Positions 1 to 19,408 of a stretch of 19,408 bases of DNA are shown here, one piece after another. Every line of letters starts with the position of its first letter. Within the stretch, counting starts at the first letter, position 1. The translations under genes and the position numbers were made by a program. This DNA comes from Escherichia coli (GTDB taxonomy: Bacteria; Pseudomonadota; Gammaproteobacteria; Enterobacterales; Enterobacteriaceae), in the NCBI RefSeq assembly GCF_003334385.1, contig NZ_QOWN01000061.1. One strand, given 5' to 3'. The notes under the pieces were generated by a model. It was not told the DNA's origin. It saw nothing but the letters and a program-made list of their open reading frames with translations, and made no database searches.

Positions 1-77
1 AACGCGAGGCATCGTCTTAACGAGGCACCGAGGCGTCGCATTCTTCAGATGGTTCAACCCTTAAGTTAGCGCTTATG
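1..77. mobile_element. Partial terminal segment of an IS186-like insertion sequence, cut by the window edge. The reverse complement of 55-77 reads CATAAGCGCTAACTTAAGGGTTG, which I recognise as the IS186 terminal inverted repeat.
   Basis: Terminal repeat recognised from memory, not searched. It is followed by a G-rich/C-rich stretch (GGGAATTATCCCC, 77-89) resembling the known IS186 target preference. K-12 carries an IS186 copy next to nupC. The exact boundary is uncertain by 1-2 nt. Confidence 0.5.
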
Positions 78-108
78 GGAATTATCCCCGGCTTTTTTAT
101 GTATGGTC

Positions 109-1311
109 TTACAGCACCAGTGCTGCGATTGACGCAGACAGCACACTCACCAGGGTAGAGCCGTAAACCAGCTTCAGACCGAAGCGAGAAACCACGTTAC
201 CTTGCTCTTCATTCAGGCCTTTAACTGCACCTGCGATAATCCCGATTGAAGAGAAGTTAGCGAAGGAAACCAGGAACACAGAGATGATGCCTTCAGCACG
301 CGGAGAGAGCGTGGAAGCAATTTTCTGCAGATCCATCATCGCAACGAACTCGTTGGAAACCAGTTTGGTCGCCATGATACTGCCCACTTGCAGTGCTTCA
401 CTGGAAGGAACACCCATCACCCATGCAATCGGATAGAAGATGTAGCCCAGGATGCCCTGGAAGGAGATGCTGTAGCCAAACCAGCCAGTAACGGTGGCAA
501 ACAGTGCGTTCAGCGCGGCGATCAGGGCGATAAAGCCAATCAGCATCGCGGCAACGATAATGGCAACTTTGAAACCTGCCAGAATGTATTCACCCAGCAT
601 TTCGAAGAAGCTCTGACCTTCGTGCAGGTTGGACATCTGGATGTTTTCTTCACTGGCATCAACACGGTAAGGATTGATCAGCGACAGCACGATAAAGGTG
701 CTGAACATGTTCAGTACCAGCGCAGCAACGACGTATTTCGGTTCCAGCATGGTCATGTATGCACCAACGATGGACATCGACACGGTGGACATTGCCGTGG
801 CAGCCATGGTGTACATACGATTACGGGAGATTTTGCCGAGGATATCTTTATAGGCAATAAAGTTTTCAGACTGACCCAGAATCAGGGAGCTGACGGCGTT
901 AAAGGATTCCAGTTTGCCCATGCCGTTGACTTTGGAGAGCAGGAAACCAATTGCGCGGATGATCACCGGCAACACGCGAATGTGCTGGAGAATACCGATC
1001 AGTGCAGAGATAAAGACGATTGGGCACAGCACTTTCAGGAAGAAGAATGCCAGGCCTTGATCATTCATGCTACCAAAGACGAAGTTAGTCCCTTCGTTGG
1101 CAAATCCGAGCAGTTTTTCGAACATTTCGGAGAAGCCTTTCACGAAGCCTAAACCAACGTCGGAGTTCAGGAAGAACCACGCCAGTAACACTTCGATAAC
1201 AAGCAGTTGAATAACATAACGGATACGAATTTTTTTGCGGTCGCTGCTTACCAGCAGTGCGAGAATCGCAACAACGGCAAGTGCCAGTACAAAATGAAGG
1301 ACGCGGTCCAT
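109..1311 (-). CDS. nupC: Nucleoside:H+ symporter NupC (CNT family), 400 aa
   Basis: The 413-aa minus-strand ORF at 109-1350 is trimmed to the internal ATG at 1311 ([13 protein letters not shown]...), which has a GGAG Shine-Dalgarno upstream and gives the 400-aa length I recall for NupC. Polytopic membrane protein; stop TAA at 109-111. Confidence 0.93.
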
Positions 1312-9867: not shown

Positions 9868-12363
9868 ATGTTAACGATTCAATTTCTCTGTCCTTTGCCT
9901 AACGGTCTACATGCTCGTCCGGCGTGGGAACTTAAAGAACAGTGCAGCCAGTGGCAAAGCGAAATCACTTTTATTAACCATCGCCAGAACGCAAAGGCAG
10001 ATGCGAAAAGCTCGCTGGCGCTGATTGGCACCGGCACCCTATTTAATGACAGTTGCAGCCTGAACATTAGCGGCAGCGATGAAGAGCAGGCGCGGCGCGT
10101 GCTGGAAGAGTACATCTAGGTGTGCTTTATCGACAGCGACAGCGTTCAGCCTACGCAGGCAGAACTGACGGCGCATCCGCTGCCGCGTTCATTAAGCCGC
10201 CTTAACCCGGATTTACTGTACGGCAATGTGCTGGCAAGCGGCGTCGGCGTGGGTACGCTGACCCTGTTACAAAGCGACAGCCTCGACAGTTATCGGGCAA
10301 TCCCCGCCAGTGCGCAAGATTCCACCCGGCTGGAGCACAGCCTGGCAACGCTTGCCGAGCAACTGAACCAGCAATTGCGTGAGCGTGACGGCGAAAGCAA
10401 AACTATCCTCAGCGCCCATTTGTCGCTGATTCAGGATGATGAATTTGCAGGCAATATCCGTCGCCTGATGACAGAACAGCATCAGGGGCTGGGGGCGGCG
10501 ATCATCAGCAATATGGAGCAGGTTTGCGCCAAACTTTCTGCCTCTGCCAGCGATTATCTGCGCGAACGTGTTAGCGACATTCGCGATATCAGCGAACAGT
10601 TGCTGCATATCACCTGGCCGGAACTGAAGCCGCGCAACAAGCTGGTGCTTGAAAAACCGACCATTCTGGTGGCTGAAGATTTAACCCCAAGCCAGTTTTT
10701 GAGCCTTGATTTGAAAAATCTTGCGGGCATGATTCTGGAGAAAACCGGGCGCACCTCGCATACACTGATTCTGGCCCGTGCCTCGGCGATCCCGGTACTG
10801 AGTGGCTTGCCGCTGGATGCGATTGCCCGTTATGCCGGGCAACCTGCAGTGCTTGACGCCCAGTGCGGCGTGCTGGCGATTAACCCGAATGACGCGGTGA
10901 GCGGTTATTATCAGGTCGCGCAGACGCTGGCGGATAAACGCCAAAAACAACAGGCGCAGGCTGCCGCGCAGCTGGCCTATTCCCGTGATAACAAGCGTAT
11001 TGATATTGCGGCGAATATCGGCACCGCTCTGGAAGCGCCAGGCGCGTTTGCCAACGGCGCGGAAGGTGTCGGGCTGTTCCGTACCGAAATGCTCTATATG
11101 GATCGCGACAGCGCGCCGGACGAGCAGGAGCAATTTGAAGCCTACCAGCAGGTGCTACTGGCGGCGGGCGACAAGCCGATTATCTTCCGCACGATGGACA
11201 TCGGCGGCGATAAAAGCATTCCTTATCTGAATATTCCCCAGGAAGAGAACCCGTTCCTCGGCTATCGCGCGGTACGTATTTACCCGGAATTTGCTGGCCT
11301 GTTCCGCACTCAACTGCGGGCCATTTTGCGCGCCGCCAGTTTCGGCAACGCCCAGTTGATGATCCCGATGGTTCACAGCCTCGATCAGATCTTATGGGTG
11401 AAAGGCGAGATCCAAAAAGCGATCGTTGAGCTTAAGCGCGATGGCCTGCGTCATGCAGAGACGATTACGCTTGGGATCATGGTGGAAGTTCCGTCGGTGT
11501 GCTACATCATCGACCACTTCTGCGATGAGGTCGATTTCTTCAGTATCGGCTCCAACGATATGACCCAGTATCTGTATGCGGTCGATCGTAATAACCCGCG
11601 CGTATCGCCGCTATATAACCCGATTACGCCATCGTTCCTGCGCATGTTGCAGCAAATAGTTACCACTGCGCATCAGCGGGGCAAATGGGTAGGCATTTGC
11701 GGTGAACTGGGCGGTGAAAGCCGTTATCTGCCGCTACTGCTTGGGCTGGGCCTGGATGAGCTGAGTATGAGTAGCCCGCGTATTCCGGCGGTGAAAAGCC
11801 AGCTTCGTCAACTGGATAGCGAGGCGTGTCGGGAACTGGCGCGTCAGGCATGTGAATGCCGCAGTGCGCAGGAAATTGAAGCGTTACTCACCGCCTTTAC
11901 GCCGGAAGAAGACGTTCGCCCACTGCTGGCGCTGGAGAATATCTTTGTTGATCAGGATTTTAGCAATAAAGAGCAGGCGATCCAGTTCCTGTGCGGCAAC
12001 CTCGGCGTTAACGGGCGCACTGAACATCCGTTTGAGCTGGAAGAAGATGTCTGGCAGCGGGAAGAGATTGTTACCACCGGCGTTGGTTTTGGCGTAGCGA
12101 TCCCGCACACCAAATCTCAGTGGATCCGTCATTCCAGTATCAGCATTGCCCGGCTGGCGAAACCGATTGGCTGGCAGTCAGAAATGGGCGAAGTCGAACT
12201 GGTGATCATGCTGACGCTGGGTGCTAACGAAGGGATGAATCATGTGAAAGTCTTCTCGCAGCTGGCGCGTAAACTGGTGAATAAAAACTTCCGCCAGTCG
12301 TTGTTTGCCGCGCAAGATGCACAAAGTATCCTGACGCTGCTGGAAACAGAATTAACCTTCTGA
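9868..12363 (+). CDS. fryA: PTS multiphosphoryl transfer protein FryA (fused HPr-like, Enzyme I-like and EIIA-Fru-like domains). As written, the frame is interrupted by an in-frame TAG at 10117-10119, giving an 83-codon HPr-like ORF (9868-10119) and a 747-codon EI-EIIA ORF (10120-12363).
   Basis: The HPr motif GLHARPA, the EI phospho-His motif GRTSHTLILARA and the EIIA motif GVAIPH are all present in one frame. The span is 2496 nt, which equals 832 codons, the size of a single 831-aa fused protein. The TAG is visible directly in the sequence (TAC ATC TAG GTG TGC). Confidence 0.85.
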
Positions 12364-19303: not shown

Positions 19304-19408
19304 TGGGTCAGGATGGCTCATTTGGGCAGGTTGATCTTACCCAGCAATAGTGGACACGCGGCTAAGTGAGTAAACTCTCAGTCAGAGGTGACTCACATGA
19401 CAAAAACA

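Follow-up and report, generated by a model that had tools for sequence, protein, structure and literature searches.

Results

An IS186 end lies next to nupC

The window, that is, the whole 19,408-nt stretch of Escherichia coli DNA analyzed here, opens with aacgcgaggc...ggttCAACCCTTAAGTTAGCGCTTATGggaattatccccggcttttttatgtatggtctta (positions 1–111) and carries on its minus strand, according to the list of open reading frames, an intact coding sequence for the nucleoside:H+ symporter NupC (109..1311). The gene name and the protein accession (WP_000376337.1) were taken from the annotation of genomes that are 100% identical to the window across positions 1–400. The first 77 bp (1..77, plus strand) coincide base for base with the final 77 bp of an IS186/IS421 copy of 1,339 bp, as present in strains 720632 and ES4, and represent the right end of that element, past the transposase stop. 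Within this segment, positions 55..77 read CAACCCTTAAGTTAGCGCTTATG, the exact reverse complement of CATAAGCGCTAACTTAAGGGTTG, so that the minus strand holds a perfect copy of the 23-bp terminal inverted repeat of IS186. Only one end of the element is contained in the window, the 23-mer having no other match in the 19.4 kb when up to 3 mismatches are allowed. Without mismatch, the 23-mer stands at each end of IS186A, IS186B, and IS186C in MG1655 and of the element described as IS4-like IS421 in 720632 and ES4. The final base of the inverted repeat is G77, with GGGAATTATCCCC at positions 77–89, and in a comparison of the 2 orientations in which the element is found at this locus, identity begins exactly at position 55. 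With the nupC stop codon at 109–111 of the minus strand, 31 nt separate it from the end of the element, close to the "about 30 bp" estimated in an earlier, sequence-only reading of this DNA, which had recognized the IS186 terminus from its inverted repeat.

Two genomes with the identical junction carry a complete element

Many complete E. coli chromosomes match positions 1–400 of the window with 100% identity, among them that of strain 720632 (locus L001), which, together with the complete genome of strain ES4 (L005), has the nupC junction in the same orientation as the window. In both genomes, what precedes the base corresponding to position 1 belongs to an element of 1,339 bp with perfect inverted repeats of 23 bp at its ends. 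Its 370-aa protein, annotated in 720632 and ES4 as an "IS4-like element IS421 family transposase," reaches 133 bits with the NCBIfam model NF033592 for the IS4 family (cutoff 115), and the coding sequence lies upstream of window position 1, on the plus strand of the ES4 locus (L005 1794–2906). In size, in the presence of a single open reading frame, and in sequence identity, the 2 elements, both outside the window itself, are IS186/IS421. Accordingly, the transposase gene and the second inverted repeat that the sequence-only reading had predicted about 1.3 kb away are found in 720632 and ES4, the junctions of which are identical to that of the window.

In the annotation of MG1655, IS186C/insL3 is located between nupC and pdeA (yfeA). 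The element of 720632 is identical to IS186C at 1339/1339 positions once one of the 2 is reverse complemented relative to its flanks. Being inverted with respect to the K-12 copy, the element of the window lineage has its transposase gene reading toward nupC, the 2 genes being convergent. As the contig ends within the repeat, we infer the IS186 body and the pdeA-side junction of the source genome from the complete genomes that share the identical junction. Strain 720632, identical otherwise, shows 2 further changes at this locus: pdeA is also interrupted by ISKpn26, an IS5-like element (L001 1289–2474), and the pdeA-side flank of IS186 (L001 2725–2738) reads GGAG rather than GGGG, a point change in the old target that postdates the insertion.

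The target site is duplicated at the element and intact in insertion-free strains

The 10-mer GGAATTATCC occupies positions 78..87, directly on the nupC side of the element, and recurs next to the opposite end of the IS in ES4 and in MG1655, as expected for a target-site duplication. IS186 targets GGGG(N6/N7)CCCC in either orientation, and as many as 16 independent IS186 events have been recorded at a single site (Lee et al. 2016, PMC5009759); at the lon promoter, a spontaneous IS186 insertion was found at the same position but in the opposite orientation (PMC3045373). The empty-site target at the present locus, GGGGAATTATCCCC, with its 10-bp duplication GGAATTATCC, conforms to this description, and the runs of G and C that the earlier reading had singled out beside the element turn out to be one half of an exact GGGG(N6)CCCC target. 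No further motif of the GGGG(N6/N7)CCCC type is present elsewhere in the window.

The comparison with insertion-free strains that had been proposed alongside that reading recovered both the empty site and the 10-bp duplication GGAATTATCC. In strain 536 and in O157:H7 (Z1766), the 49-bp spacer between pdeA and nupC is uninterrupted and contains GCGTAAAAAAGCCGGGGAATTATCCCCGGCTTTTTTATG, and BL21(DE3), NCTC86, UMNF18, D9, and BE2-5 possess the same empty site with AAAAAAA in place of AAAAAAG. The sequence CCGGGGAATTATCCCCGGCTTTTTT is common to the empty sites of 536, O157, BL21, NCTC86, UMNF18, D9, and BE2-5. We also rebuilt an empty site by joining the end of K-12 pdeA, one copy of the 10-mer, and the window sequence from position 88 on. 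This 1,550-bp query matched at least 40 complete genomes in one piece and with 100% identity. The existence of the rebuilt site, intact, in real genomes indicates that the insertion was clean and generated a 10-bp duplication. Mechanistically, IS186, an IS4-family element with a DDE transposase, would have transposed into GGGG-AATTAT-CCCC within the 49-bp spacer of the convergent pdeA and nupC genes, and staggered cleavage of the target followed by gap repair would have duplicated the 10 bp of GGAATTATCC.

The insertion splits a predicted two-way terminator

At the uninterrupted site, an 8-bp GC-rich stem, GCCGGGGA/TCCCCGGC, closed by a 4-nt loop, is extended by six A-U pairs. The underlying perfect palindrome, AAAAAA(G/A)CCGGGGA-ATTA-TCCCCGGCTTTTTT, combines an A-tract on one flank with a T-tract on the opposite flank and is situated between convergent genes. 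For the nupC strand of the empty site, folding yielded −25.8 kcal/mol (z score −6.1), and for the pdeA strand −31.1 kcal/mol (z score −6.9). Judged by this predicted fold, the empty site is a textbook two-way rho-independent terminator common to pdeA and nupC, whereas no bidirectional intrinsic terminator structure is found downstream of nupC in the window.

Since the target is the top of the palindromic terminator, the insertion parts its 2 arms. The alignment of empty and occupied sites identifies the arm that survives in the window as 85..98, composed of TCCCCGGC (85–92) and T6 (93–98). Read on the nupC strand, A6 and GCCGGGGA (from 98 to 85) are present, so that the upstream arm and the loop are kept; past UCC, the strand runs into the IS sequence CAUAAGCGCUAAC, leaving a 4-bp remnant without the U-tract, which is now 1.3 kb away. 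The minus strand of positions 30–115 folds no better than shuffled sequence (z +0.73), and a terminator scan of positions 1–1700 called none, in line with the earlier remark that no convincing minus-strand hairpin with a T-run is seen between the nupC stop and the IS end. The accompanying suggestion that the native nupC terminator had been displaced needs to be amended: it is lost to nupC, as proposed, but the structure was not merely displaced; it was split, each gene being left with the proximal arm alone, and it was a two-way terminator belonging to pdeA as well. The A/T arms, by lengthening the stem, caused the simple scanner used here to under-call the native terminator: it gave a sub-optimal version of 5 pairs on just one of the 2 strands, and folding was therefore relied on instead. 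On the plus strand, G77–A80 and the surviving arm (together 77–98) form a mini-hairpin of 4 bp, after which CGGC-T6 follows. Rfam models, applied to the entire window at gathering thresholds, gave no match. The coding sequences of pdeA and nupC are both unaltered by the insertion.

Collectively, these observations make it very probable that a complete 1,339-bp IS186 is inserted at GGGG-AATTAT-CCCC in the source genome, splitting the two-way terminator of pdeA and nupC. The insertion accounts for both the missing nupC terminator and the point at which the window starts.

The pdeA-nupC site exists in 3 states

The distribution of the junctions was assessed in 5,426 complete E. coli genomes. The nupC junction in the orientation of the window is full-length in 465 of them, and the same number, 465, was obtained for the pdeA-side junction; in all genomes with the window junction (465/465), the opposite junction adjoins pdeA, which places the left edge of the window inside an insertion sequence, as had been deduced from the letters of the window. 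The junction in the K-12 orientation was found in 478 genomes, many of which are laboratory derivatives of K-12. The 1,550-bp empty-site query matched 6,392 places in 5,427 records, which translates into approximately 965 interrupted and approximately 4,460 intact genomes. The pdeA-nupC site is a three-state polymorphism, empty in approximately 82% of the genomes and occupied in each of the 2 orientations in approximately 9%. The spacer has also been visited by another element in at least one further genome: in MEI003 (L012 1690–3003), an IS3-family insertion with an apparent 3-bp TGG duplication is located in the 49 bp, between the intact terminator and the nupC stop.

Both ends of the window are insertion sequence stubs

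At its right edge, the window closes with 77 bp (19332–19408) that exactly match the left end of IS3, inserted 27 bp past the yfdY stop (19304) in the region where yfdY and ypdI converge. Each of the best-matching 60 complete genomes either stops matching at position 19331 or has IS3 elsewhere; as none of these 60 carries IS3 at 19332, this insertion appears to be strain-specific. De Bruijn assembly with k=77, when it breaks in repeats, yields stubs of 77 bp. The presence of a 77-bp IS stub at either end, IS186 on the left and IS3 on the right, suggests that the window is a whole short-read contig assembled with k=77 and broken at repeats, which would explain why it halts 77 bp into IS186.

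Elsewhere in the window, fryA/ptsA (9868–12363) differs from its counterparts in MG1655, NCTC86, and other strains by 2 substitutions located six bases apart (positions 10117 and 10123), namely CAG to TAG (Q84*) and CGC to TGC (R86C), and the listing of open reading frames restarts at 10120. The PTS enzyme I-like fryA gene is therefore truncated in the window lineage.

Alternative origins of the junction

The presence of a genuine, complete element at the left edge can be weighed against 2 other accounts. That positions 1–77 resemble a mobile element by chance has next to no probability: the match to the inverted repeat is 23/23 and was obtained in 0/200 shuffled sequences even when 3 mismatches were tolerated, all 77 bp are identical to the IS186 end, and thousands of genomes lack exactly that segment at the pdeA-nupC site. 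More serious is the scenario in which the 77 bp represent a solo or truncated IS186 end, or a rearrangement junction, such that nupC does not adjoin a complete IS186 followed by pdeA; the window stops inside the repeat and thus shows nothing of what precedes position 1, and IS-mediated rearrangements are common (PMC5009759). Nevertheless, the nupC-side and pdeA-side junctions each occur in exactly 465 genomes, the examples examined contain the full 1,339-bp copy, and a 77-bp stub at each end of the window fits an assembly break at k=77 better than a biological truncation, all of which leaves this scenario very improbable.

A different question is whether the 2 orientations go back to 1 insertion or 2. 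A single ancestral IS186 copy might later have been flipped in place, either by recombination between its 23-bp repeats or by excision and re-insertion, and the identity of the 10-bp duplication and of the element (1339/1339) in both orientations agrees with such a history, as do the mere 7 SNPs that separate the window from MG1655 over 19.2 kb of flanking sequence. However, the empty-site genomes of NCTC86, UMNF18, and D9 are about as near to the window (9–10 SNPs) as MG1655 is, and no SNP sets the window and MG1655 jointly apart from the empty-site genomes. Most of the SNPs among the window, MG1655, and the empty-site genomes are private to the window haplotype, and the sole shared derived site that was found, 7773T, joins the window to ES4, which has the element in the window orientation. 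Furthermore, repeats of 23 bp offer very little length for homologous recombination, whereas repeated insertion of IS186 at one target in either orientation is documented (PMC5009759, PMC3045373). The SNP pattern and the repeated IS186 hits in either orientation make an independent insertion the better explanation; we consider an in-place flip unlikely, and the most likely source of the window orientation is a separate insertion into the same palindrome. Two candidate indicators of common descent were discarded in the course of this comparison: the G-to-A change in the A-tract (AAAAAAG versus AAAAAAA) does not mark a shared insertion, because many empty-site genomes, BL21 and NCTC86 among them, have the A variant, and flank similarity to K-12 is not evidence of a shared origin, the empty-site genomes being equally similar.

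Predicted consequences for transcription

With the element in the window orientation, nupC transcripts would be expected to read into IS186 antisense to the transposase gene. Inside the element, the only terminator-like site on the strand of the nupC transcript is GCCGGAAAGGGAGCTCCGGC-TTTTTTATTA (L005 2524 to 2505), approximately 550 nt from the junction. Read-through from nupC may end at this internal hairpin and its T6, or else via Rho. Transcripts of pdeA would, in turn, enter IS186 in the sense direction, and in K-12 the roles of pdeA and nupC would be swapped. The plus-strand mini-hairpin with CGGC-T6 might serve as a weakened exit terminator that limits transcription from the IS into antisense nupC. 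The same disruption is present in K-12, where nupC is functional, and the physiological effect may therefore be small or negligible.

The sequence-only reading had additionally credited IS186 with outward promoter activity that could affect neighboring genes. This proposal found no backing here: a consensus promoter scan detected nothing promoter-like at positions 1–110, which cover the IS end and the junction, and none of the literature matches examined attributes such activity to IS186, the word "outward" in those matches on IS186 and promoters referring to primers or to engineered transposons. In the predicted read-through RNA of pdeA, CAGGCGTAA, from the region of the pdeA stop, is complementary to TTACGCCTG, inside the left end of IS186 (L005 1709–1717 and 1766–1774, respectively). 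The 2 segments could form a 9-bp helix (z −2.1) and are juxtaposed only in the window orientation; we treat this complementarity as probable chance rather than as a meaningful structure.

Discussion

The presence of IS186 beside nupC is not new. It appeared in print in 1994 and forms part of the MG1655 annotation, and both the target motif and the indifference of the element to orientation have been published as well. The 1994 report, by Craig, Zhang, and Gallagher, names IS186 as adjacent to nupC in its title. Our literature search returned nothing on IS186 together with nupC or yfeA, and insL3 matched a human hormone gene only. What the present analysis adds is solely the inverted allele of the window lineage and the three-state polymorphism of the site. 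The insertion is of an ordinary, described kind, and its significance hardly extends beyond careful annotation. Nevertheless, the reference arrangement of K-12 emerges as one of 3 natural alleles, and where K-12 is used as the wild type for the 3′-end biology or mRNA stability of nupC and pdeA, it should be borne in mind that the native shared terminator is disrupted in that strain too. The orientation polymorphism could, in addition, mark lineages within phylogroup A-like haplotypes.

The closest known counterpart of the insertion is IS186C of MG1655, which is the same element (1339/1339), sits at the same insertion point to the base pair, is flanked by the same 10-bp duplication, GGAATTATCC, and splits the terminator in the same way. 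The 2 differ in the direction of the transposase gene, which is co-directional with nupC in K-12 and with pdeA in the window lineage. The IS186 hot spots at the lon promoter, fimA, and menC share with the pdeA-nupC site the flanking GGGG(N6)CCCC motif and the insertion at one position in both orientations across strains. However, the target here is an intrinsic terminator, whereas the described hot spots lie in promoters or coding sequences, and the pdeA-nupC insertion is polymorphic in natural populations (approximately 17% of complete genomes), whereas the described hot spots come from laboratory lines. An IS186 hot-spot insertion is also said, going by the title, to be the subject of a 2001 paper by SaiSree et al.

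The remaining IS186 copies of MG1655 (loci L013 and L014) extend the comparison. IS186A, after hokC, and IS186B, after hokE, are each 1,339 bp long and are flanked by 10-bp duplications, and their reconstructed targets are GGCGGGGA-TCAC-TCCCCGCC and TGCGGGGA-GTAA-TCCCCGCA, respectively. All 3 K-12 copies of IS186 thus reside in the loops of hairpins with an 8-bp stem and a 4-nt loop, CGGGGA-NNNN-TCCCCG, at gene 3′ ends, which raises the possibility that the effective target exceeds GGGG-N6-CCCC and is more hairpin-like. We tentatively put forward, as a proposal that may well prove wrong, that the nupC/pdeA terminator is a recurrent natural hot spot of IS186, with the 2 orientations being independent and the orientation setting the gene from which sense read-through originates, and that IS186 favors CGGGGA-N4-TCCCCG hairpins at gene 3′ ends. 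If so, sense read-through into the transposase gene would come from nupC in K-12 and from pdeA in the window lineage, coupling transposase expression to different host signals and depriving both host genes of a proper 3′ end. IS186A and IS186B resemble the nupC/pdeA insertion in having a hairpin target of the same form and a 10-bp duplication, but their hairpins are without flanking A/T tracts, the nupC/pdeA site being the only canonical two-way terminator of the three.
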